NCBI GenBank assembly: GCA_047638595.1 | Contig: JBLIMJ010000003.1 | Location: 11,710-75,709 of the forward strand | Length of the DNA stretch: 64,000 nt | Source of the DNA: Acidimicrobiales bacterium | Lineage (GTDB): Bacteria; Patescibacteriota; Minisyncoccia; Phycocordibacterales; UBA918 | Reading direction: 5' to 3' | Shown here: in pieces, positions 2,307 to 45,504 of the stretch | How the letters are laid out: each line of letters begins with the position of its first letter | Numbering within the stretch: the first letter of the stretch is position 1 | The notes under the pieces: model-generated | Seen by the model: the letters and a program-made list of their open reading frames with translations, nothing else | What the model was told of the DNA's origin: nothing | Databases searched by the model: none | Position numbers and translations under genes: made by a program

Positions 2307-3632
2307 TTAGTACGATTTCAAACGCCGAGCTTTTTCATGCTGTCGAATCTTCTCAAGCGCTTTTGCCTCAATCTGTCGAATACGTTCACGCGTTACACCA
2401 AATTCACGCCCGACCTCTTCAAGTGTGTGATAAGTGCCATCAACCAGACCGTGCCTCATTTCAAGAATGCGTCGTTCTTTCTCTGAAAGAGTGTCAAGAA
2501 TTTCTTGAATTTGATCAGTGAGAATACTGTGTGACACTTCCTGATCAGGCGAAATCATCTTATCGTCAGAAATGAAGTCTGACAATCGCGACCGGTCATC
2601 ATCATCACCGATAGGAAGTTCCAATGAAATAGTGTCCTGACTAATTTTCTCAATCTGATACACTTTCTCTACCTCAATCCCCATCTCAGTAGCAATTTCT
2701 TCTGGCACAGGGTCACGGCCAAAATCTTGTGCGAGGCGTCGTGAGACCTGTTTGTACTTTGCCATGGTTTCAACCATGTGTACGGGAATACGAATCGTAC
2801 GTGACTGATCAGCGAGCGCTCGTGTAATTGCCTGACGAATCCACCACGTAGCATACGTAGAAAACTTAAATCCTTTCAAGTGGTCAAATTTATCAACCGC
2901 TTTAAAGAGTCCTAGGTTTCCTTCCTGAATCAGGTCCAGGAGAGTAAGGTCGGGTGAACGTCCTACATACTTCTTAGCAATAGAAACAACGAGCCGGAGG
3001 TTTGCTCGTGCAAGCAGATTTCGTGCTTCTTCATCTTCATCAAGAATCCTTTGTGCAAGATCGCGCTCTTCTTGAGCAGTAAGCAATGGGTACTGACCAA
3101 TCTCACGCAGATACATTTGGATAGAATCGTAGCCACTGTCATTACGTTTGTATGAATTTTTCTGTGCAAGTATCTCTATAGAAGGATCCGTACCAAGCAT
3201 GCCTCCGCTTGAGAGCACATCGATACCAGCAACTGAGAAGTTGTCATACATCTCCTCTAGGAAAGGTACCTCTTTCTCAATTTGAGGGAAGAATTTTAAA
3301 ATTTCATCATATGTGACGTAACCACGTTCACGTCCAAGTTTCATCAACTCAGATGATTTTGCCCGTTTAATTTTTTGCGTCTTAGTAAGTTTTTTCTTTA
3401 CGGGAGCTTTTTTTGCAACAGTTTTAGCGGCAGCTTTTTCTGCTGGCGCTTTTTTTGCTACGGCTTTTACTGGCTTCTTTGTAACTTTCTTTGCTACTAG
3501 TTTTTTGGCAGTTGTTTTTTTAGCTGTTGCCGTCTTTTTGACTGGCGTTTTTGCTACTGATTTTGTTGCCTTTTTGACGACTTTTTTGGTCGTTTTTTTC
3601 GCGATTTCTTTGGTTGCTTTTTTAACAGCCAT
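2307..3632 (-). CDS. rpoD: Primary RNA polymerase sigma factor (sigma-70/RpoD) with lysine/alanine-rich histone-H1-like N-terminal extension
   Basis: Regions 1.2-4.2 recognisable ('[27 protein letters not shown]', '[24 protein letters not shown]'). About 95 N-terminal residues of KKxxAKK repeats. Directly downstream of dnaG. Confidence 0.93.
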
Positions 3633-3740
3633 AATCCGACAACTATACTCTATTTTAGTAATTAGTCCAGTGTTTTTCGCTTATTATAAAAAGGCAAACT
3701 ACAGGAGTAGTCGGATGACTCATGTAGTTATAGAGTTGCT

Positions 3741-5549
3741 TTAATCTAGCTTTTTAGGTGGCAAAATCCCAAACACTTCTGGTGTAAATAAAAGTGTGTC
3801 TTGCTTCTTTTTAAAAGCTGAAATATCTCCCAGGGTCTTCATCACTAATGTATCGTCACTTGCTGTTTCAGCCTTGTGAAGTACTTGTGTATGATCTTTC
3901 ATACCTTCTTTTCCCACCAATACCACGAGCTCATTAAGCTTATCGACTGTCTCTTCATAGACTTGTTTTATAGGCGTTGCTTCTATGTAAGACTCAAGTT
4001 TAAATGACAAACCACTTGTCTTGGTTGCATCGAGCGTTGCTTGTATTTGAGCAAGTGTCTCAGAGACTGTCTTCTCCAGCGCATGCCGAAGGTTTGACTT
4101 CTGTTCTTGAGGGAATACATCCACCAAAACGGCTAAGTACTGACGTAATTCTTTTTTTCGTTGGAACTGCATTTTAGGATCTTCTTCTGGACGAGTTGAC
4201 GATTGCGCTTGTGAACGCTCTTGGGTTTTCGGTCGATTTTGTTCCTTTTGTTTTTCTTGTTCTTGCAACTGAGCGAGGCGTTCAGTCTCAAAATGAATTG
4301 CATCCTTTGTAGTACCTAAACGTTCTGCAATTAAATTCTCAAAATGTTCCTGATCTATTCGATTTGGAATCTTCACAACGTATGGAAGGATTTCCTCCCT
4401 GGCCTTGAGTTTAAACGTTCGTTCTTCCAGCTTTTGGTTTTGCAGTACGTCAAGTAGAAACTCGATGACGTGTGTTGCCTTTCCTATGGAATGCTTAAAT
4501 TCTGTCGGATCTTTCTGTATCATGTCTGCAGGGTCTTCGCCGTCAGGCATATGAGCGACTTTCACATCCATACCTCGTGCAAGCATAACGTCTGCTGCAC
4601 GTTTGACTGCAGCAATTCCCGCTCGGTCTGAATCAAGTGCGAGAACCACCCGGTTAGAAAGGCGTTGTAGGAGCATTACATGATGTTCTGTAAGGGCTGT
4701 TCCTGACACTGCTACCGTGTTTGAGTAACCTGCCTGATGCGCCATCACCACATCAAACTGCCCTTCCACAATCAACGAGAAATCCATAGTGCGAATTCCC
4801 TGTTTTGCTTTATCATATCCATAGAGGATATCTGACTTATTAAAGAGTTCTGTTTCAGGTGAGTTAACGTATTTTGGCGCTTCGCTGTCTTTAGTAAGAA
4901 TACGTCCTGAGTATGCAACTACCTTCCCTCCAGCATCAAAAATTGGAAACATTATCCGGTCACGAAACAAATCGTACGGCTCTTTGCCTGAATCAGCTCC
5001 TTTCACCAAACCAGCCCTCAGAAGCTCGGTAGAGGTGAATTTCTGGGCTTCCAGCGCGTTTTTAAGCTCTCTCCAGCCATGGTCAGGTGGTCCTGGTGCA
5101 TATCCAATACGCCATTTTGCTATTGTTTCCGGCTTTACTCCTCGGTCCTTTAGATACACCTGTGCAGCAGTTTTCTTGGTGAGATATTCACTAAAGTACT
5201 TCGTGGCAGCCTCAAGTGAATCATACTGTCGGTCACGCTCTGTTCGCTTCTTTGGGTCTTCTCGAACCAGCTCAACTCCTGCTTTATCTGCAAGTATCTT
5301 CAAAGCACCCTTGAAATCAACCCCTTCCATCTCTTGCACGAAAGTAAAGATGTCACCCCCTTGAGAACTAGAAAAACAATAATACATCCCACGATCTGGA
5401 GACACATAAAATGATGGGGTCTTTTCGTTTGTAAATGGAGATTTTCCTTTAAAGTTTTTTCCCGCAGGATGTAGCTCAACATACGAAGACACCACATCCA
5501 CCACCGAAAGTCTTTCTTTTATCTGAGATACTGAATCACCTGAAGCCAT
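3741..5549 (-). CDS. dnaG: DNA primase DnaG
   Basis: CHC2 zinc-finger region ('SPFTNEKTPSFYVSPDRGMYYCFSSSQGGDIFTFV') and Toprim core. Start taken at the internal ATG 5549 (MASGDSVSQIKERL...). The ORF is open to 5597. Confidence 0.9.
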   Translation of the reverse strand: MASGDSVSQIKERLSVVDVVSSYVELHPAGKNFKGKSPFTNEKTPSFYVSPDRGMYYCFSSSQGGDIFTFVQEMEGVDFKGALKILADKAGVELVREDPKKRTERDRQYDSLEAATKYFSEYLTKKTAAQVYLKDRGVKPETIAKWRIGYAPGPPDHGWRELKNALEAQKFTSTELLRAGLVKGADSGKEPYDLFRDRIMFPIFDAGGKVVAYSGRILTKDSEAPKYVNSPETELFNKSDILYGYDKAKQGIRTMDFSLIVEGQFDVVMAHQAGYSNTVAVSGTALTEHHVMLLQRLSNRVVLALDSDRAGIAAVKRAADVMLARGMDVKVAHMPDGEDPADMIQKDPTEFKHSIGKATHVIEFLLDVLQNQKLEERTFKLKAREEILPYVVKIPNRIDQEHFENLIAERLGTTKDAIHFETERLAQLQEQEKQKEQNRPKTQERSQAQSSTRPEEDPKMQFQRKKELRQYLAVLVDVFPQEQKSNLRHALEKTVSETLAQIQATLDATKTSGLSFKLESYIEATPIKQVYEETVDKLNELVVLVGKEGMKDHTQVLHKAETASDDTLVMKTLGDISAFKKKQDTLLFTPEVFGILPPKKLD

Positions 5550-5665
5550 AAGTAGCACTAGTATACTCCACTTTGAACAACTCCCAAAATACGCCATAAA
5601 AATTGACTTTTGGGTATTGTCATGTATAATAGATTTTAGACAACACCCAGTAAGAAGGACAACAA

Positions 5666-5938
5666 ATGCGTAGCTCCAACATTACAATCACGACAGAAGC
5701 ATCGTCTCGCATTCCGTACGAGGAAAGCAAAACAAAAAAGCTGATTAAACAACTTTGCTCACGATTCAATCTCGGTAGCTCATCATTTGCTCGGCTCAGT
5801 GTCACTGATGATGAACTTGTGATTGTGACATCGTATGGAAGTCTGATCCCAGACAACCAACTCACCGATGCTTATCGTCACCAAGGAAACCCCAAAGGCC
5901 GTGTCACTGCTAAAAAGAGTGCATCAGGACATCGTTAA
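5666..5938 (+). CDS. Hypothetical small protein (90 aa)
   Basis: SD-like AAGAAGGA 8 nt upstream. Followed by a C9/G5 hairpin plus T-tract terminator. No recognisable domain. Confidence 0.4.
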   Translation: MRSSNITITTEASSRIPYEESKTKKLIKQLCSRFNLGSSSFARLSVTDDELVIVTSYGSLIPDNQLTDAYRHQGNPKGRVTAKKSASGHR

Positions 5939-5943
5939 ATTTA

Positions 5944-6000
5944 TCACACCCCCCCCCTTGAAAAAGAATCCTCTGGATTCGCTCGGGGGTTTCTTTTTTG
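5944..6000 (+). terminator. Hairpin with C9 homopolymer arm followed by TTTCTTTTTT
   Basis: ACACCCCCCCCC...CGGGGGTTTCTTTTTTG. C-run at 5949-5957. Confidence 0.45.
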
Positions 6001-6059
6001 TCCACTCCTCAAAAATACCGCAATTAATTGAGGTATTCCTCCACACCTACACAACCCAT

Positions 6060-6083
6060 CTCCATATCATTGATGATATGGAG
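6060..6083. promoter_or_regulatory. 24-bp palindrome CTCCATATCAT-TG-ATGATATGGAG, candidate operator upstream of the TrpR-like gene
   Basis: Perfect inverted repeat. Its arms are identical to the terminator palindrome at 6583-6614. Confidence 0.5.
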
Positions 6084-6105
6084 CATAAAACTTAGGTATG
6101 TGGTA

Positions 6106-6123
6106 TATATCATTAATGATATA
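6106..6123. promoter_or_regulatory. 18-bp palindrome TATATCATTAATGATATA, 9 nt upstream of the start codon
   Basis: Perfect palindrome sharing the ATCAT..ATGAT core with the neighbouring palindromes. Overlaps the expected RBS/-10 region. Confidence 0.5.
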
Positions 6124-6131
6124 ATTTAATT

Positions 6132-6584
6132 ATGAGCACAAATCACAAAAAACTAAACTCTCGTAAAAAAGAACTTATTCTTGAAGCATTATATGCAGGT
6201 GTCAAAAGCATGCCCCAGGATAATTCTGTGGAGTATTTTATAAATACGTTACTCACTGAAAGTGAGAAAATAACAATTGGTCGCCGTATTCTTATCGCGC
6301 AAATGATACTCGCTGGAAAAACTCAGGCAGAAATACGATACATTCTTGGAGTGAGCCCAAACACTTTCACCCGTACACGCAAGTGGCTTAATAAGCAAAT
6401 ACCACACTACGATGATGCCATAAAGAAACATGCAGTTGAACAAATGGCAAGAGCAGTAAAGCGCAACGGAACAAGAAAGAAATATATAGACCCATTGAGT
6501 TTTACTGGATTACGGAAAAAATTTCCCATGCATTTTCTACTCTTTAACGTTGCTGAAGAGTTGATTGTAAAATTATCAAAATAA
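6132..6584 (+). CDS. TrpR-like / YerC-YecD family helix-turn-helix regulator
   Basis: 150 aa. 'ESEKITIGRRILIAQMILAGKTQAEIRYILGVSPNTFTRTRKWL' matches the Trp-repressor-related YerC/YecD HTH. Confidence 0.7.
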   Translation: MSTNHKKLNSRKKELILEALYAGVKSMPQDNSVEYFINTLLTESEKITIGRRILIAQMILAGKTQAEIRYILGVSPNTFTRTRKWLNKQIPHYDDAIKKHAVEQMARAVKRNGTRKKYIDPLSFTGLRKKFPMHFLLFNVAEELIVKLSK

Positions 6585-6620
6585 CTCTCCATATCATCAA
6601 TGATATGGAGAGTTATTTTG
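6583..6620 (+). terminator. Intrinsic terminator: 13-bp stem overlapping the stop codon, followed by ATTTTGTTT
   Basis: AACTCTCCATATCAT-CA-ATGATATGGAGAGTT then T-rich tract. Same arms as the upstream palindrome at 6060. Confidence 0.6.
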
Positions 6621-6628
6621 TTTGGTTA

Positions 6629-6658
6629 TTGCTTGATATCATTGATGATATCAAGCAA
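6629..6658. promoter_or_regulatory. 30-bp palindrome TTGCTTGATATCAT-TG-ATGATATCAAGCAA
   Basis: Perfect inverted repeat sharing the ATATCAT-NN-ATGATAT core. Confidence 0.45.
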
Positions 6659-6676
6659 TAAGGGATGTAGCTATTA

Positions 6677-6717
6677 ACACAAAAGACCGGCGCGTAGTGC
6701 CGGTCTTTTGTGTTTTT
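6677..6717. terminator. Bidirectional intrinsic terminator downstream of rpoC and repeat copy A
   Basis: ACACAAAAGACCGGC-GCGTAGT-GCCGGTCTTTTGTGTTTTT. Confidence 0.7.
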
Positions 6718-6768
6718 ACTCCCCTACTCAATCTTCCTTACTCTAGGAATTTTCAGATGATTCCAGAT

Positions 6769-6846
6769 GCGAGGAGCACAAGGAAAATAATTTGAGGCGT
6801 ACTTAGTGGTACGTTGAAAATTATTTTCCGTAGTGCGACGAAGCAG
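6769..6846 (-). repeat. Conserved ~80-nt palindromic 3'UTR repeat, copy A (after rpoC stop)
   Basis: About 85% identical to the copies at 16160-16241 and 40741-40822. Core GCGAGG..GGAAAATAATTTGAGGCGTAC..GTACGTTGAAAATTATTTT..CGAAGCAG. Confidence 0.8.
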
Positions 6847-6866
6847 ATGGGATTAGCTGTGGATTT

Positions 6867-9800
6867 CTATTTTTCTAGGGATTTGGACACAGCTTGAATC
6901 ATGTCGTACTTAGGCGACCCTTTAAATCCTGACCCTGCTGGAATCAGCTTACCAATAATCACGTTCTCCATAAGTCCTGCGAGATTATCTTGGCTTCCCT
7001 TTACTGCTGAGTTAATCAAAATACGAGTTGTATTTTGGAATGAAGCAGCTGAAAGGAACGACTTTCGCGATAGTGAACTTTCAGTAATACCCATAATGAG
7101 TTTATCAGCCTTTGCTTGTTCTTTACCTTCGGCCTTCAGCTTATTGTTTGCTTCAACAAAGATCCATTCTTCGATCACTTCACCTGGAGTAAAGTGACTG
7201 TCACCAGAAGCGTTTACCTTCACTCGTGACATCATTTGTTTCACAATAAGCTCAATGTGCTTTCGAGAGATAGTCACACCTTGTAGTTCGTAAATCTTAT
7301 TTACTTCAGAAATGATGTAGTCCTGTGTCTGCTCCTTAGTACCATACTTGAACAAGTCTGGTAGATAAGCAGAACCATCAGTCAACATCTGACCTCCAAC
7401 AACATTGTCTCCCTTAGATATTTTTACCACTCGTCGCCAATTTACTTCATACTCAATGACGTCTGACTTTTTCGGAGCGTACTGTGAAGTTTTATCAACT
7501 GCAACAGTAATGAATTTCTCACGTCCTTCTGTTCGAATCTCAGTTACAAAACCTGCAGTTTTAGAAATAATTGCTGGAATCTTCGGTAGTCGTTTTTCAA
7601 ATACTTCTTCTACACGAGGAAGACCTTGTGTAAGGTCACCACCTGCTGAAGATGTACCACCTGCGTGCTTGGTGTTCATCGTAAGCTGTGTACCCGGTTC
7701 ACCAATAGCTTGTGCTGCAATAGTTCCTACTGCTTCACCCATATCCACCAATGCATTGGTTGTAAGATCTACACCGTAACACTTCTGGCATACACCGCGT
7801 AATGTTGCGCAAGTCATCGGAGAACGAACCTCAACTGATTCACACGTACTTTCTTCAACAGATATAGCATCGCGTCGAGTAAGTAAGTGCCCTTTCTTGA
7901 ATATAACGTTATCTTTAGAGTCAACAATATTTGCAGCAATAACTCGTCCCTTCAATGCTTTTGCAAATGAAATCTCAATACCAGAAGCAGAAATGCGTCC
8001 GATATTTGTACTTTCTTTTGTTTTACAGTCTGACTCTGTAATGATAGCGTCCTGTGCAACAACAAAGAGTCGTCGTGTAAGATACCCAGCTTTTGCAGTT
8101 TGAAGTGCAGTGTCGGCAAGTCCTTTTCGAGAACCGTGGGTTGTCGTGAAATACTCAATTGGACTCATGCCCTCCTTCATAGAAGAAATAACGGGGAACT
8201 CAACTGTTTCACCTCGAGTGTTTACAATCAAACCTTTCATACCAACCATCTGAGCAATCTGGCGCATTGATCCACGCGCTCCAGACTTCCAAAGATCATA
8301 TGCTGAACCGTTATGATCCATGTGGTTTGGAATAATTTCTTCCAATTCACTCTTAGTTCTGTGCCAGATCTCAATAACCATTCGTCGACGTTCTTCTCGT
8401 GAGAGAAGTCCTTCTTCGAAGTTCTCTATAATTACTCGTTCCTCTGCTCGAGATTTTTCGATAATAGCGCCCTTCTCTGGTGGTATAACCACTTCATCGA
8501 TTCCCCATGTGGTACCAGAAACGGTTGCATATTTGAAACCAAACTTCTTAATTTTGTTTACCACACTTGGTACGATTTCAGTTCCTTGATCATCAATAAG
8601 GTCAAGTACTACGGCGAAGAGATCTCGTTGAGAAACTACTTCATTAATGTATCGATGATCACTTGGAAGTACCGAGTTGAAGAGAAGTCGTCCTACGGTT
8701 GTTTCAAATATCTGTCCCTCATACTGTGCATATTTAGCAGTATCTGTTGCAAGTACTTTAACTTTTGCTCGGAAATCTACAATATCGTAATCATATGCGT
8801 TAATCGCATCATTGGGAGATGCAAACCACTTTCCTTCTCCTTTTGCTCCTTCGATTTCTTTAGTCATCCAGAATGCTCCGAGTGCCATATCCATAAGTGA
8901 CTCAGATACTACAGGCTCACCTGATCCTGGCTTAAGTACATTCTTGTTTGCAGAAACAATTTCACGAGCTTCAGTCTGTGCTTCTTCAGACAATGGTACA
9001 TGTACCGCCATCTGGTCACCATCGAAATCAGCGTTAAATGCCTTACACACCAATGGATGAATCTGAATTGCATTACCTTCAATCAGTACCGGACGGAATG
9101 CCTGAATACCCTGTCGGTGCAACGTTGGCGCACGGTTAAGTAGTACATGCTTTTCAGCGATAACACCTTCAAGAATTGCCCATACTTCAGGTACACCGTC
9201 TTCAATAAGACGTCCTGCTCCACGGATGTTGTACGCGAGTTCTTGCCGGAGTAATTCTGAGATAACAAACGGTCGGAACAATTCCAGTGCCATGTGTTTT
9301 GGGAGACCACACTGATCAAGTTCAAGTTCTGGACCAATAACAATTACTGAACGTCCAGAATAGTCCACTCGCTTACCAAGCAAGTTCTGTCGAAAGTATC
9401 CCTGCTTACTTTTTAGGTAGTCAGAAAGAGACTTCAATGGTCGGCGTTGTGCCTGACTCATTGCTGAGTATGCAGTGTTCCCGTGACGAATAGAGTTGTC
9501 GATAAGGGCATCAACAGCTTCCTGCATGATTCGCTTCTCGTTACGTAAGATCACGTCTGGCGCCATGATGTCGATAAGCTTCTTCAAACGATTGTTTCGA
9601 TTGATGACGCGTCGATAAAGGTCGTTGAGGTCACTCGATGCGTGTCGTCCACCTTCAAGTGCAACCATTGGACGTAGTGCAGGTGGAATCACAGGAATTC
9701 TCTGGAGAAACATCCATTCAGGACGTACGTTAGCATGAATCAACCCTCGGATGAGGTTCAATCGTTTGTCGAGCTTTGTACGCTCAGCTACTCCTGCAGT

Positions 9801-10556: not shown

Positions 10557-13500
10557 TTAAACGTTGTCTTCTGACTGCGCTGGTAACTCTCGCTTCAGGT
10601 CAACATCAAGGGCAAGTCCTCGGAGTTGATTTACCAGAACGTTGAATGCTGCTGGCGTGTACGGGTGACCAATTGATTCTCCTCGAACAATCGAGTCAAA
10701 TGCTGCACTTCGTCCTACGATATCGTCTGACTTAATAGTGAGCATTTCACGAAGTGTGTACGCAGCTCCGTACCCAAGAAGTGCCCATACTTCCATTTCT
10801 CCAAATCGCTGTCCACCAATCTGAGCCTTACCTCCTAATGGCTGTTGGGTAATCAGTGAGTATGGACCTATTGAACGCATATGAATCTTGTCTTCCACCA
10901 TGTGATGAAGTTTCAAGATATACATATAACCAAGTGCTGTTCTTTGTTCAAATTTTTCACCAGTACGTCCATCTCGTAATTGTAGTTTTCCGTCTCTTGG
11001 GATACCAGCTTCTTCTAATTCATCTTTGATTTCATCTTCCGTTGCAGATGCAAACGGAGGTACAATAGCCTGATATCCAAGTGAGTGAGCAGCCATACCG
11101 AGGTGTAGCTCAAGGATCTGACCAAGGTTCATACGTGATGGCACACCAAGTGGTGTCAAAAGAATATCAACTGGACGTCCATCTTCTGTATAAGGCATAT
11201 CTTCTTCTGGAAGAATTCTTGAGATAACACCCTTGTTACCATGACGTCCTGCAAGCTTGTCACCTACAGATATATTTCGTACCTGTGCAACAGTGACAAG
11301 AATCTTCTTGATAACACCACTTTCTAGATTGTCTCCATTTTCACGAGAGAAAATCTTTACGCCAATTACTCGTCCTCTCTTTCCAGCCTGAAGTCGTAGT
11401 GAAGTATCTTTTACATCTTTAGCCTTTTCACCAAAGATAGATCGGAGTAATCGTTCTTCAGGAGTTAGTTGTGCTTCACCCTTTGGTGTTACCTTACCAA
11501 CAAGAATATCTCCAGGACGTACCTCTGCACCTACACGGATAATTCCGTTTTCGTCGAGGTTCCGAAGTTTCATTTCTGACACATTTGGGATATCTGGAGT
11601 TGTTACTTCAGGTCCAAGCTTTGTGTCTCGTACAGACACATCGAGTTCATCCAGGTGAATAGAAGCAAACTTACTTTTCTTCACAAGGCGTTCTGAAATA
11701 ATAATCGCATCCTCATAGTTCGCACCAGACCATGACATAAATGCTACCAGAGCATTTTGCCCTACCGCCATTTGACCATGATCAGTTGAGGTAGTGTCTG
11801 CAAGCAAGTCGCCTCGCAATAATTTATCTCCAACAGTTACCGCAGGTCGATGATAAAATGCTGAGAAATCGTTGGTTCGCTGGATAGTGGTCAATTCGTA
11901 TTCATCTTTCTTTCCGTCTTTTTTCTGAACTACGATGTGTGTTGCATCACATTCAATAACTTCACCAGCTTCACGGGCTACAAGAACACGTCCTGTATCT
12001 CGTGCAGCCAGTCCTTCAATACCAGTTCCTACAATCGGCGCCTCTGGGATAACACAAGGAGTCGCCTGCTTTTGCATGTTTGAACCCATCAATGTTCGGT
12101 TGGCGTCATCATGATTCAAAAATGGAATCATTGAGGTAGCCACAGAGAATGCCTGGTTGGTTGCAATATCCATGTAGTCAACATCTTTCCTTGCTACCAA
12201 TCGAGGCTCACCCTTACGACGTACTTCTACGTGATCAGGTGTAATTCTGCCCTTGCTATCTACTTCTACTGCAGCATGCGCAATAGTGAATGCTTCTTCC
12301 TCATGTGCGTTAAGATATATAATTTCGCCGGTTAAAATACCTTTCTCTACTTTTACGTATGGTGTTTCTATAATACCGAATCGGTTTACTCGAGCATACA
12401 TTGCAAGACGAAGAATCAAACCAATGTTCGGCCCTTCCGGAGTATGGATTGGGCAGAGTCGTCCGTAGTGTGATGTATGAACGTCACGCACTTCAAAACC
12501 AGCACGTTCTCGTGTCAATCCACCAGGACCAAGCGCTGAAAGTGTACGTAGCCCTTCAAGCTCTCCAAGCACGTTTTGCTGTGGCATGAACTGTGAAAGC
12601 TGGTTTGTGGTAAAGAATTCTTTAATCGCAGCCTGTAGTGGTCGTGGATTAAGAATCTGCATTGGGAGTGAGGTTTCTGCTTCAATAGTCGACATCCGGT
12701 CTTGAATGTTTCGCTTCATACGAGTCATACCAACTCGTACTCGCTGGATAGCCATTTCACCGAAGTATCGTACACGTCGAAATCCGAGGTGGTCGATATC
12801 GTCTGGCATAGCTCCAGGTGTATGGTTGAGTACCATAATGTTCCCAAGAATCAATCGGAAATCCTCAAGTGAGGTTGTTCGTTCATCGGTTGCCTTTTTA
12901 TCAACAGGCCGATCAAAACGACTATTGAAATGATGCCGTCCGATTTCTGAAAGATCGTACCGTTCAGGAGAAAAGATGGAGTTTACAAACTCCTTTGCGT
13001 TATCTACGGTCGCAAGATCACCATCTCGCAGACGTTTATAGACTTCAACATATGAATCATCAGTCGTTTTTGCTGGATCTTTTTCAAGTGTTGCTTTGAT
13101 GTACTCCTCACCTCGCTCTACATCGCTAAAGAGCTTAATCATATCTTCATCTTTCTCAACGCCTAATACGCGGAGAAGTGAAGTGATAGGCACTTTCTTC
13201 TTTCGATCAATTTTAATGTAAATGATTCCATCCGCCTCAGACTCAATTTCAATCCATGCACCACGTGCAGGAATTATTTTTGCTCCAAAGTATGTTTTAC
13301 CCTTAATGTCTTGGGACGTGAAGAAGATACCGTAACTTCGTGCAAGTTGTGGCACCACTACTCGCTCAACACCATTAATGATGAATGTTCCATGATCAGT
13401 CATCACAGGAATATCCGCCAAGAAAATTTCCTGATCCTTTGCGGAATCAAAAGTTTTGTTCTTTAAGACTACTGTTGCACGCAATGGTGCATCATACGTA

Positions 13501-15295: not shown

Positions 15296-15424
15296 AACTA
15301 TAGCGGTTAACCGCTATAGTTCCTCAGTCAGTGGGAATCTCTTATCATACGATTAATCGTATGATAAGAGATTAAAGTGGCGGAACTAGTTCAACATCTC
15401 TATAGTACGGTTAACCGTATACGA
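15296..15424. promoter_or_regulatory. Cluster of three palindromes (26-bp perfect, 38-bp perfect, ~16-bp) between the nudix gene and the upstream gene
   Basis: P1 AACTATAGCGGTTAACCGCTATAGTT (15296-15321). P2 AATCTCTTATCATACGATTAATCGTATGATAAGAGATT (15336-15373). P3 TACGGTTAACCGTA (15406-15419). Confidence 0.6.
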
Positions 15425-16115: not shown

Positions 16116-16159
16116 AGTCACTCCTCTTCATCATTTGAAGAATAGAAATGAGATGAAAT

Positions 16160-16241
16160 ACGAGGCGCGTGAGGAAAATAATGTGAGACGTACATTGAGT
16201 ACGTTGAACATTATTTTACCGAACTGCAACGAAGTAGTTCG
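16160..16241 (-). repeat. Conserved ~80-nt palindromic 3'UTR repeat, copy B (after khpA stop)
   Basis: Aligns with copies A and C. Flanked by the short inverted repeat TTTGAAGA / TCTTCAAA. Confidence 0.8.
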
Positions 16242-16246
16242 CTCGT

Positions 16247-16624
16247 TTATATCTTCAAATCGTCGATGGCGTCGTCTAGGGACTTAGGCTCCGGCGCTAT
16301 CTCCTCCCCTACACTCATGGCTTCTCCTGTATCACTTCCGCCACCCTCTTCGGTAGCATCTGCTGTTACCACACGCCCACCTTCTGGTTCGTTAATCTTT
16401 AAATTAACTCGTGCGTCATTCTTCATTCCTACCACTCGAAGTAGTGTTCGGATAGCCTTTGCGGTATTACCTGAACGTCCAATAATCTTACCCATGTCGT
16501 CAGCATGTACATCAAGTGTAAGAAGCACACCCATCTCATCTACTGTTCGATTAACTTTTACGCTGTCTGGGTTATCTACCAATGAAGTAACTACAATCTC
16601 TAGAAATTTCTGATCATCTTGCAT
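16247..16624 (-). CDS. khpA: KH-domain RNA-binding protein (KhpA/YlqC family) with acidic C-terminal extension
   Basis: 'GKIIGRSGNTAKAIRTLL' KH GxxG motif. Sits in the conserved position between rpsP and trmD. Confidence 0.8.
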   Translation of the reverse strand: MQDDQKFLEIVVTSLVDNPDSVKVNRTVDEMGVLLTLDVHADDMGKIIGRSGNTAKAIRTLLRVVGMKNDARVNLKINEPEGGRVVTADATEEGGGSDTGEAMSVGEEIAPEPKSLDDAIDDLKI

Positions 16625-27908: not shown

Positions 27909-28538
27909 CTACAACAGAATTATATTTTTGCAATAGCTTTTTCGGTGTTCTGAGGATAATCCGTTCTGAGCAATCGATTCTCTATGAGCTTTCGTTCCAT
28001 AGCCTTTATGAGTAGCAAACATATACGGTGCGAATTTTGGTTGTGCAGAAATGCGTACCATATACCGATCACGTGTCACCTTTGCCATAATTGATGCAAG
28101 CCCAATTACCTTTTCCTTCGAATCACCTTTAATGATTGTTTCTTGGTGGGTAAATTCTTTAGGAGCTTTTAATCCTCCGTCTAACTTAACGGTATAGGCA
28201 TCATACTCAATACCGCAATTAACAGGGTCGCTAACGACGCTGTTAATTGCGGAATACATTGCCTTGGTTACCGAAGCTACAATTCGTATCTCATCTATCT
28301 CTATGGCGGATACCATTTCAACTGCGTAGGTTAATTTTCCTTCACTTTTCAATTGTGTTGCAATCTCAAAGATTACTTCCCGTTTCTTCTCAGTGAGCTT
28401 CTTACTATCATTTACACCTGGTATCTGCTCCCAGTCAAAATCAAAAGGGACCATTGCCACCCCAACAGACACTGGGCCTGCCAGAGGGCCACGACCTGCT
28501 TCGTCTATCCCTATGGTGTATTTAGAATTCATTGACAT
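27909..28538 (-). CDS. rnhB: Ribonuclease HII
   Basis: 'IGIDEAGRGPLAGPV' N-terminal catalytic motif. Confidence 0.92.
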   Translation of the reverse strand: MSMNSKYTIGIDEAGRGPLAGPVSVGVAMVPFDFDWEQIPGVNDSKKLTEKKREVIFEIATQLKSEGKLTYAVEMVSAIEIDEIRIVASVTKAMYSAINSVVSDPVNCGIEYDAYTVKLDGGLKAPKEFTHQETIIKGDSKEKVIGLASIMAKVTRDRYMVRISAQPKFAPYMFATHKGYGTKAHRESIAQNGLSSEHRKSYCKNIILL

Positions 28539-40716: not shown

Positions 40717-42909
<2,193 letters not shown>

Positions 42910-43569: not shown

Positions 43570-45504
43570 TTATCGAGTTTCCCAATCTTGTTCTGTAGCC
43601 GCTTTGTACACTTTATCCATTTCAGTATTCACTTCATCATCAGTGAGTGTTCGATCCATTGCTTGAAATACCAAACGAAATGCAAGTGACGTCCTTCCCT
43701 CTTTACTAAATTCATCAACATGTGTCGTACGTATTCGCAAGTCCCCTGCTGATTCATTGAGCACCTTTTCCACATCTTCCTTCGAAGTTCCTTCTGGAAC
43801 CCACATTGCAATATCACGAGTCATAGCTGGATACAGAGAAAAAGGTTTATACGCAATCTCTTCTGCAACAGAAACAGTTTCGTACGCAGCTGGCGCAGGA
43901 AGAGATTCAAATACTTCAGTGAAGTTACATTCAAACACCCCCTTCTCAATACTACGGTTAACCGTAGTATTGAGCTTTGATTCGATTACTCCCAACACTT
44001 CTTCAAGTACTGCCTCATCTTTTGGGTTGTAGCCACTTGCTTTGGTTCGTACGCCAAGTGCCAGAGATACATGTTCTGCAATGCCACCTTCTGTTTTATG
44101 AAAAACTGTTCCAATTTCAAATACACGAATATCTTCGATGCCGAGCAAGTCGGTAAATCCTGCATTTTTATCTAGAACGTCCACAATCCCCTTTGCCAGG
44201 TTGGAGCGCATGTATTCTTTATCACTTGCAAGCGCATTTTGTAGTCGTATTTTATCTTTCTTCCTAAAGGATGAGATGATGACCTCAGAGAAACCTAACC
44301 CGACCAAAACATCACGAACTTGTTCGCTGTAGGAGTGTCGTGCATTAAGCTCCGTAAGGGCCACCGTCTCTGGCACAACTGACTCAATCTTATCTAGGCC
44401 GTATACTCGTCCAATTTCTTCAGTAAAGTCCTCCTCGATTGATAGGTCAGTTCGCTCCCATGGACCAACACATTCAAAGTGGTCCCCCGCTTTTTCTACA
44501 GTAGCTCCCATACGCGTAAGGATTGATTCCATCTCATCCTCTGACAGAGACAGTCCCAGTAACGCATTTACCTTTTCAGGTCGTACGCTCACTTTTGTAT
44601 TTTCTTTTTTCTCTAGATAGACATCAAGCACTCCCTGTCCTGCTCCTCCAGCAATATCGGCAATCAGTGCAGTAACTTCTTGTTGTGCGCAGAGTGGCAA
44701 CTCTCGTGAACATTCATTTTCAAAACGTTTTGAAGCGTCAATGACAATACCAAGTCGCCGTGCTGTCTTACGTGTAAGCGTAGCGTCAAAGTGTGCACAC
44801 TCGATAATTATCTTCGTAGTATTTTCATCCACTCCTGCAAATCGTCCGCCCTTTACTCCTGCTAGACCAATTGGAGTGTTTGACGATTTATCAATAATCA
44901 AAAGTTCGGTACCTTTCAGAACTACATCACGGTCTTCATCCTTCCCGCCTTCAGCAATCAAACTCACTACCTCTCCTTCCTTTGCATACCGTACAGCAAA
45001 TTGCCACTTTCCATCTACTTGTGGGAATTTATCAGCATCATACGCATGGATTGGTTGCCCAATGGCATACATGACGTAGTTGGTTGCATCAACAATATTA
45101 TTGATTGGTCGCTGACCGAGGGCCTGCAGTCGGTCCTGTAGCCACCGTGGTGAATCTTTCACCTCAATGCCCGTCATCAATGACGCAGTAAATCGTGGAC
45201 ACGCTTTTTCATCTTCTATATCAACCGTAATAACGTCAGTCTCTTGTGGAGTAATTTCTTTCTGAAGTGGATCGTTTACTAAAGGTACTCCTGTAATAGT
45301 TGCGATTTCACGCGCAATGCCTCGATGGCACAAGCAGTCTGACGAACGGTTTGGCAACACATCCACATCAATCACTTCGTGCCCTGCGACTGTTTCAATT
45401 CCTTCGATCTCAAAAGAATGGAATGTCAAAAGCTTCTCAATCTCTTGCGCAGAAGGAATGGAGTCACCAATATAATCTTTAAGCCAATTGTGTACTACTA
45501 ACAT
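43570..45504 (-). CDS. pheT: Phenylalanyl-tRNA synthetase beta subunit (short form)
   Basis: B3/B4, B5 and class-II-like core blocks. Immediately downstream of pheS. Confidence 0.9.
   Translation of the reverse strand: MLVVHNWLKDYIGDSIPSAQEIEKLLTFHSFEIEGIETVAGHEVIDVDVLPNRSSDCLCHRGIAREIATITGVPLVNDPLQKEITPQETDVITVDIEDEKACPRFTASLMTGIEVKDSPRWLQDRLQALGQRPINNIVDATNYVMYAIGQPIHAYDADKFPQVDGKWQFAVRYAKEGEVVSLIAEGGKDEDRDVVLKGTELLIIDKSSNTPIGLAGVKGGRFAGVDENTTKIIIECAHFDATLTRKTARRLGIVIDASKRFENECSRELPLCAQQEVTALIADIAGGAGQGVLDVYLEKKENTKVSVRPEKVNALLGLSLSEDEMESILTRMGATVEKAGDHFECVGPWERTDLSIEEDFTEEIGRVYGLDKIESVVPETVALTELNARHSYSEQVRDVLVGLGFSEVIISSFRKKDKIRLQNALASDKEYMRSNLAKGIVDVLDKNAGFTDLLGIEDIRVFEIGTVFHKTEGGIAEHVSLALGVRTKASGYNPKDEAVLEEVLGVIESKLNTTVNRSIEKGVFECNFTEVFESLPAPAAYETVSVAEEIAYKPFSLYPAMTRDIAMWVPEGTSKEDVEKVLNESAGDLRIRTTHVDEFSKEGRTSLAFRLVFQAMDRTLTDDEVNTEMDKVYKAATEQDWETR

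Follow-up and report, generated by a model that had tools for sequence, protein, structure and literature searches.

A TrpR-like regulator gene bracketed at both ends by palindromic putative operators

The DNA analysed here is a stretch of 64,000 nucleotides of contig JBLIMJ010000003.1 (assembly GCA_047638595.1, positions 11,710 to 75,709 of the forward strand), which we refer to as the window. At 6132–6584 on its plus strand lies a gene for a 150-aa helix-turn-helix (HTH) protein, assigned to the TrpR family by Pfam (PF01371), an AlphaFold2 model, Foldseek and a family alignment. The gene is bracketed by four related palindromes, designated O1 to O4, which we interpret as predicted operators of the encoded protein. 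The genes dnaG and rpoD are located upstream in divergent orientation, and rpoC and rpoB downstream in convergent orientation. An earlier note on the window had proposed that a TrpR-type repressor controls its own expression through several operators and might act at both gene ends; the comparative evidence presented below, namely the conservation of the bracket and the co-variation of site and protein, supports that proposal.

All four sites are symmetric and have no strand. O1, the distal upstream site (6059–6084), has the full 26-bp form (TCTCCATATCATTGATGATATGGAGC); its palindrome reads CTCCATATCAT-TG-ATGATATGGAG (6060–6083) and is centred 60.5 bp 5' of the ATG. O2, the promoter-proximal site (6102–6127), consists of the minimal core only (TATCATTAATGATA, 6108–6121), within a palindrome reading TATATCATTAATGATATA (6106–6123) that is centred at −17.5 and ends 8 nt before the ATG. 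The first 3' site, O3 (6577–6620), is a perfect palindrome with 21-nt arms that include the TAA stop codon, and its 26-bp site is at 6586–6611. O4 (6626–6661), the second 3' site, is also a perfect palindrome, with 17-nt arms and no T-run, and its 26-bp site is at 6631–6656. O1 and O3 have identical arms, and the centre-to-centre distances are 43 bp for O1–O2 and 45 bp for O3–O4. Common to all four is ATATCAT-N2-ATGATAT, with 16-bp cores at 6064–6079, 6107–6122, 6591–6606 and 6636–6651. The earlier note had listed the same four palindromes; its coordinates were correct for O1 and O2, whereas those given for O3 (6583–6614) and O4 (6629–6658) had to be replaced by the wider ones above.

The motif was far more frequent than expected by chance. 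Exact matches to ATCATNNATGAT numbered four in 64 kb against 0.10 expected from shuffled sequences, and none of 100 shuffles reached four. All four copies of ATCAT-N2-ATGAT in the window are found no more than 70 bp away from either the start or the stop of this gene, and a search with ATATCATNNATGATAT allowing up to two mismatches returned the same four sites and no others. We then scored the window with a 26-bp weight matrix trained solely on sites from other genomes, the window being left out. O1 to O4 scored 28.6, 17.1, 31.7 and 27.2 bits, respectively, so that O3 was the strongest and O2 the weakest match; the matrix found no further site in the 64-kb window, the best remaining position scoring 7.8 bits, which is no better than shuffled sequences (maxima in 20 shuffles: mean 7.2, top 13.4 bits). 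A weak candidate at 5618, near the promoter of dnaG and a small open reading frame (ORF), was rejected, as it was one of six window matches with two mismatches and was absent from the top matrix scores.

A 38-bp palindrome at 15336–15373, which had been suggested as a distal site of the same regulator, is indeed present. It reads TATCAT-N12-ATGATA and received no matrix score. Among all occurrences of TATCAT-Nx-ATGATA (x = 0–20) in all loci of the comparison described below, 47 of 51 had the N2 spacing and N12 was found once, so we rejected this palindrome as a site on account of its spacing. It is flanked, within one intergenic region, by two copies of a second palindrome family centred on CGGTTAACCG; the copies CTATAGCGGTTAACCGCTATAG, CTATAGTACGGTTAACCGTATAC and CTCAATACTACGGTTAACCGTAGTATTGAG are located at 15300–15322, 15400–15422 and 43945–43974. 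This family could represent operators of another regulator.

To follow the bracket beyond the window, we compared 26 distinct homologous loci (cited by L numbers) from genome and metagenome collections, all of them metagenomic and mostly labelled Patescibacteria. Cognate palindromes were found both upstream and downstream of the gene in 25 of the 26, also where the neighbouring genes or the core sequence differed, so the association of regulator and palindromes proposed from the window holds in its relatives. Each locus carried two to six sites, and sites at opposite ends of the gene were 417–529 bp apart (19 of the first 20 loci, those with sites). In these first 20 loci, the pattern TATC(A/T)T-N2-A(A/T)GATA occurred 49 times in the flanks up to 300 bp from the gene (11.7 kb in total) versus 3 times in 207.5 kb elsewhere, a density about 290-fold higher in the gene flanks; the motif is thus confined to the gene in the window and strongly concentrated at it in the relatives. 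The three outlying sites were all within 1.3 kb of the gene. One, in L021, is at −318. The one in L012 (2655–2668) directly follows the stop codon of a UMP-kinase-like gene of the amino-acid-kinase family, and that in L015 (11184) follows an inserted 149-aa gene (10652–11101). The L015 insert is unannotated and has its own promoter, Shine-Dalgarno sequence (AAGGAG) and terminator; the site beyond it is perfect. DUF805 and DM13 genes make up the inserts of L012, whose three sites are identical over 26 bp.

The dnaG-rpoD/rpoC-rpoB synteny holds in the closest clade only. Elsewhere the neighbours are an amino-acid-kinase-family (UMP-kinase-like) gene or genes for UDG, peptidase M48 or rhodanese; these vary between clades, and no partner gene was conserved across the loci. 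Since the neighbours differ outside the closest clade, the palindromes travel with the regulator gene. This bears on an alternative that we consider improbable, in which the protein does bind the sites, though not to regulate a gene, forming instead a structural or insulating complex, such as a roadblock or boundary between strongly transcribed neighbours (rpoBC, dnaG-rpoD) or nucleating in a ParB-parS-like manner. It is consistent with the finding of no other target in the window or the homologous flanks, with the placement of sites where the 3' ends of convergent genes meet (as with rpoC in the window), with the extra sites after neighbours in L012 and L015, and with the upstream pair of L005, which lies inside a 106-bp divergent region shared with dnaG. 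Against it, the neighbours are not conserved over the family, only two to six sites are present per locus, and the constant feature is one site overlapping the predicted promoter and the start of the regulator gene itself, a hallmark of autoregulation. The L005 pair (3894–4001, equivalent to L018 9894–10001) fills the region between dnaG-rpoD and the regulator as a 55-bp composite inverted repeat whose outward halves (TATCATTGATGATAGGTAGAC) are identical towards each gene; in this locus, expression of primase and sigma-70 could be under the same repressor.

The palindromes might instead be recombination or insertion sites of a cassette-like unit, comparable to REP-RAYT or integron attC. Genes do appear to have been inserted beside sites in L015 and L012, with an extra site beyond the insert; upstream and downstream modules resemble direct repeats in L005 and L021; and a Y1_Tnp gene adjoins the locus in L036. 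However, the protein has a TrpR fold, and no catalytic transposase or recombinase domain was found in it. The sampled loci hold one copy, or diverged paralogs each with its own sites, and synteny is stable within clades. Each site has by itself the two-fold symmetry of a dimer site and does not form a single arm of some terminal inverted repeat; no dispersed copies of the palindrome occurred in 64 kb, and a search of 2.9 million viral contigs found no relatives of the protein, leaving a phage origin without support. We therefore regard a mobile unit as highly improbable. The L036 gene just mentioned (3607–4068) encodes an IS200/IS605-type Y1 transposase (PF01797), convergent with and directly 3' of the TrpR-like gene and its palindrome; since such enzymes act on DNA hairpins, this placement may not be accidental.

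Alignment of 104 half-sites gave the consensus T(80%) C(62%) T(80%) N3 T A T C A/T T N, from which the predicted operator is 26 bp, TCT-N3-TATCAT-N2-ATGATA-N3-AGA. The N3 positions are mostly uniform within one genome and variable between genomes. Three core variants were found, each uniform within its locus and present at both ends of the gene. TATCAT, the type of the window, occurs in most loci; TATCTT (TATCTT-AT-AAGATA) occurs in L008, L010 and L035; and TATGAT (TATGATA/TATCATA) occurs in L030 and L033. In the latter two loci the recognition helix reads GPDT or GKDT instead of SPNT, so that D77, an N-to-D change, accompanies the TATGAT core. Assigning the variants to single residues was only partly possible, as D77 fits TATGAT and no residue tracks TATCTT. 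One metagenome-assembled genome (MAG) contains both L007 (TATCAT) and L008 (TATCTT), paralogs that differ in their variant. No other argument for binding by the adjacent protein is as strong as this co-variation of site and protein. It also speaks against a different transcription factor, for example one of the Fur family, with the TrpR-like gene as its target. Fur boxes contain the words GATAAT and ATCATT, and the site core has words in common with the classical Fur box, GATAATGATAATCATTATC. Yet the order and spacing of the half-sites are unlike those of the Fur box, a different adjacent protein goes with a different site variant (as in the two paralogs of one MAG), and no site adjoins any other gene in 64 kb; binding by another factor is thus very unlikely.

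At the 5' end, a predicted extended −10 element, TGATATAAT, was identified on the plus strand at 6117–6125 (TG at 6117–6118, TATAAT at 6120–6125). It is made up of the right half of O2 and the next four bases, and it ends 6 nt 5' of the ATG. A −10-like hexamer (five or six of six matches) was present exactly 6 nt 5' of the start codon in 12 of the 26 loci, and 9 further loci had a candidate hexamer 7–10 nt from it; a Shine-Dalgarno match ahead of the regulator gene was found in none of the 26. Such a sequence does precede other genes, among them the small ORF of the window at 5666–5938 (AAGGA) and the insert of L015 (AAGGAG). Since the −10 ends about 6 nt before the ATG and no Shine-Dalgarno sequence precedes it, we infer a leaderless regulator mRNA, whose promoter would be covered by the operator. 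Across homologs the proximal site is centred 12.5–26.5 bp 5' of the start codon, overlaps or abuts the −10-like hexamer, and mostly has arms of only 6–8 nt. By matrix score, the promoter site O2 is weak and the flanking sites O1, O3 and O4 are strong, which is the pattern expected of auxiliary operators. Palindromes of another type, sharing ACCGCAATTAA/CAATTAATTG, occur at 6014–6037 and 28210–28255 of the window and at about 9840–9880 of L015. The first of these lies about 25 bp 5' of O1, and the equivalent place in L015 is occupied by a longer ACCGCAATTAA-type palindrome, GGAATAACACAATTAATT...AATTAATTGTGTTATTCC; this type could be a second regulatory site within the same control region.

At the 3' end, the 26-bp site of O3 forms the top of a 21-bp-stem hairpin that holds the stop codon, with a T-rich run behind it. 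O3 thus resembles a composite of a predicted operator and an intrinsic terminator, in line with the earlier suggestion that the 3' palindrome doubles as the terminator of the gene. Across the loci, the first downstream site is centred 7–57 nt after the stop codon (7–34 nt in all but two), and the stop codon is often inside its left arm. Arms of 15–25 nt were found at the first 3' site of the window, L001, L006, L008, L010–L014, L015, L027, L033 and L035; in most of these loci the outer arms are A and T tracts, which gives the site the look of an intrinsic, bidirectional terminator. Beyond position 13 from the centre, sequence conservation is absent (about 0.1 bit per position) and pairing is kept, suggesting that hairpin formation is selected in addition to the protein site. 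Folded as RNA, 6560–6730 gave three consecutive hairpins (O3, O4 and a G+C-rich one at 6676–6714) with z = −14. The last, which has flanking A and T tracts and no strand, looks like a bidirectional terminator in common with convergent rpoC and marks where the regulator unit has its outer edge; an equivalent G+C-rich terminator follows the 3' operators in L003, L004, L005, L006, L013 and L015. A terminator/anti-terminator switch had also been suggested; we saw no alternative pairing at the 3' region able to form an anti-terminator, and this idea received no support.

These features raise the question of whether the palindromes are mainly RNA or DNA hairpins (terminators, stabilisers of the 3' untranslated region, or cruciforms) whose shared core arose by copying between sites. 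The many perfect 17–25-nt arms without conservation past position 13, the three strong hairpins of the 3' region, and the A and T tracts that O3 and its equivalents share with intrinsic terminators would all agree with this. Nevertheless, the 14-bp core is invariant across proteins of 30–50% identity while the outer stem changes freely, and the motif is absent from the many other hairpins of the window. Moreover, the proximal copy, with its 6–8-nt arms, sits on the −10 by the start codon, which makes no sense for a terminator. A pure hairpin explanation is quite improbable in our judgement.

We next considered the protein. It matched the Pfam Trp_repressor family PF01371 over residues 17–100 (E = 3.7e-12; 46.6 bits versus a cut-off of 27), and every listed homolog except P0055 carries the same domain. 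Scores against the NCBIfam models for TrpR (equivalog TIGR01321, 28.9 bits) and YerC/YecD (HisR; TIGR02531, 21.1 bits) were below the respective cut-offs of 67.25 and 42.2. The AlphaFold2 monomer model (pLDDT 81) has eight helices, six of them TrpR-like and two C-terminal at about 124–149. Its top 35 Foldseek matches in the PDB were all TrpR or putative TrpR (probability 0.99–1.0), the best being the TrpR-like 3kor, 3g1c, 3frw and 1tro. By sequence profile, the nearest solved structures were the HisR/YerC-type 3kor, 3frw and 3g1c (E = 8e-8 to 3e-6), followed by E. coli TrpR. Of the class first proposed, TrpR/YerC-like, the TrpR relationship is therefore borne out by PF01371 and the fold, whereas orthology to YerC/YecD (HisR) or to TrpR itself is not: the protein scores too low for either NCBIfam model, exceeds these proteins in length by about 45 aa and has a predicted operator unlike both of theirs.

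A family profile search returned 477 representatives of 50% identity clusters at E ≤ 1e-10, most of them 135–160 aa long and matching the whole profile; the labelled homologs come from Patescibacteria, Parcubacteria or Paceibacteria assemblies. The HTH, (V/I)SPNT(F/Y)(T/S)(R/K/Q)x(R/K)xW, is nearly invariant in the alignment, and a C-terminal block, P-x-(S/T)-F-x-x-(L/M)-(R/K)-x-x-Y-P-x-H-F-L-L-F, is conserved here and absent from TrpR and HisR. In L009 (gene at 4001–4423) the C-terminal motif is degraded (KKSEHFLLLNM), and the regulator system may be decaying in that genome. T42, R52 and T78 are invariant in the family and occupy the positions of the tryptophan-contacting T44, R54 and T81 of TrpR, with the helix E/F alignment being ambiguous between two alignments. 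A built-in tryptophan, W85, filling the TrpR ligand pocket was considered and dropped, as the two alignments placed W85 differently. The family is apparently an undescribed branch of the TrpR family, a third beside TrpR and HisR; literature searches for a prior description of it found nothing relevant.

Taken together, we estimate a probability of roughly 65% that O1 to O4 are operators of the encoded TrpR-family dimer and that the unit is a negative autoregulatory loop, a reading based on sequence comparison. In the mechanism we propose, the TrpR-like dimer would bind O1 to O4, and a dimer at O2 would block RNA polymerase at the extended −10 promoter, from which a leaderless mRNA would begin at or beside the ATG. 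The stronger O1, O3 and O4 most probably raise the local repressor concentration and the occupancy of O2 through cooperative dimer contacts, for which the conserved C-terminal helices are a candidate interface. Bridging between bound dimers would probably loop the DNA around the gene of about 450 bp; additional cognate sites are conserved at both ends in 25 loci, and the distances measured in 19 of the first 20 loci are suited to looping. The spacings of the upstream and downstream pairs match (43/45 bp in the window, 49/46 in L015, 29/29 in L005 and 75/75 in L021), which fits paired bridging and could alternatively reflect duplication of a two-site module. When free, O3 would act as the terminator that ends the transcript; when bound, it could roadblock polymerases arriving from either direction.

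Several observations weigh against this autoregulatory loop. L034 (TATCAT) and L035 (TATCTT) encode closely related proteins with nearly identical recognition helices, and for this reason the TATCTT variant may not reflect a changed reading of bases. The arms of 17–25 nt exceed any plausible protein contact, so the hairpin must be under selection as well. L009 is the sole locus without sites, where a degenerate TATC-N6-GATA hairpin remains after the stop. No clear pattern of helical phasing was seen among neighbouring operators at spacings of 29 to 112 bp. Finally, no second target was found in the 64 kb, and the roughly 207 kb of homologous flanks held none at more than about 1.3 kb from the gene; a regulator controlling just itself has no obvious use, and the real output is therefore missing from this picture.

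A bolder version holds that the operator-terminator is an obligatory part of a family-wide Patescibacteria device, in which its occupancy switches between hairpin termination and a roadblock or loop and so insulates the leaderless unit, with a small unseen regulon or ligand sensing as its output; we regard this as speculative and rather unlikely. If it were true, the same 26 bp would serve at the DNA level as a protein site and, once transcribed, as the upper part of a terminator hairpin, and an ORF-sized leaderless unit would be insulated from strongly expressed neighbours in host-dependent, reduced bacteria.

Further features were noted around the unit. Upstream of the regulator, a small ORF (5666–5938) is preceded by AAGGA and has its own terminator: a terminator scan and the sequence show an intrinsic-terminator-like hairpin with a T-run at 5970–5999 on the plus strand, which sets the regulator gene apart from transcription upstream. 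The small ORF matched no family, and its positional counterparts in L015 and L036 were just 24–26% identical to it. Known RNA families gave only sub-threshold hairpin look-alikes at 5500–7000, and the single match at gathering score in the whole window was one tRNA. A conserved element of about 85 nt occurs at 6757–6846, 16150–16240 and 40737–40822 of the window and at 11350–11440 of L015. It lies just beyond the 3' end of the minus-strand genes that were checked (rpoC in the window and L015, and ORF 16247–16624). Its core, GAGGCGTAC..GTACGTTGA, is within an A/T-rich stem with conserved flanks CGAGG and ACGAAG.AG, and the L015 copy changes the stem from AAAATAATTT/AAATTATTTT to AAAAGAGCC/GGCTCTTTT, a compensatory change. 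With no Rfam match at gathering score, the element may represent either a structured RNA of an undescribed kind or a repeat associated with terminators.

The source name at NCBI of a protein identical to the regulator is 'Acidimicrobiales bacterium'. The window has a G+C content of about 42%, its RpoB and RpoC share 77–92% identity with their counterparts in Patescibacteria assemblies, and the regulator homologs all indicate Patescibacteria (Paceibacteria) as well; for these reasons the label is probably a binning or labelling error.

Hardly any experimental results are known for transcription factors of the candidate phyla radiation (Patescibacteria). The present family is widespread, its members are about 150 aa long, and its precise 26-bp predicted operator and natural specificity variants (TATCAT, TATCTT and TATGAT) are directly testable; its compact, putatively leaderless promoter-operator-gene-operator-terminator design could be reconstructed in E. 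coli. The family further lends itself to asking why auxiliary operators occupy the 3' end of a gene, and a regulon or ligand, if found, would give a view of what reduced Patescibacteria sense.

Among known systems, E. coli TrpR is similar in fold and HTH (Foldseek TM-score 0.62–0.67 over 83–94 residues). TrpR acts as a dimer on palindromic operators about 20 bp long, several dimers being able to bind side by side, and it represses its own gene from an operator that overlaps the promoter. It differs in length (108 aa versus 150 here, where two extra conserved C-terminal helices are present), in its operator (TGTACTnGTnnACnAGTACA versus TCT-N3-TATCAT-N2-ATGATA-N3-AGA) and in that the sites here are at both ends of the gene. 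As far as we know, the host lineage generally lacks tryptophan biosynthesis. HisR of Firmicutes is also a small repressor of palindromic operators, and HisR/YerC-type proteins are the nearest structures by profile. TrpR and HisR are dimeric repressors of palindromic operators that often regulate their own genes, HisR doing so in about half of the genomes studied (PMC9413887). HisR is shorter than 100 aa, its sites are upstream of his genes and transporters, and 3' operators are not described for it in that study (PMC9413887); no his genes were found near the sites in the window or the homologous loci. The comparison with YerC/YecD-family operators that the earlier note had called for gave no likeness, as the predicted operator resembles neither the published HisR consensus (cacTTTA-N6-TAAAgtg) nor that of TrpR (TGTACTnGTnnACnAGTACA) (PMC9413887).

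RAYT/REP systems also have a gene of about 150 aa bracketed by palindromes on which its product presumably acts. RAYTs, however, are HUH Y1 transposases and REP sequences occur in hundreds of dispersed copies, whereas the present protein has a TrpR-fold HTH and its sites are at the gene only (64-kb window). LacI has an extra C-terminal oligomerisation element. In the lambda CI (OR/OL flanking cI) and LacI (O1/O2/O3) systems, as here, operators are clustered around or downstream of the promoter, a few hundred bp apart, and a weak promoter-proximal site is aided by stronger distal sites. The folds are unrelated; in the present unit the proposed loop would contain nothing but the 450-bp gene of the repressor itself, and a terminator hairpin is combined with the 3' operator.

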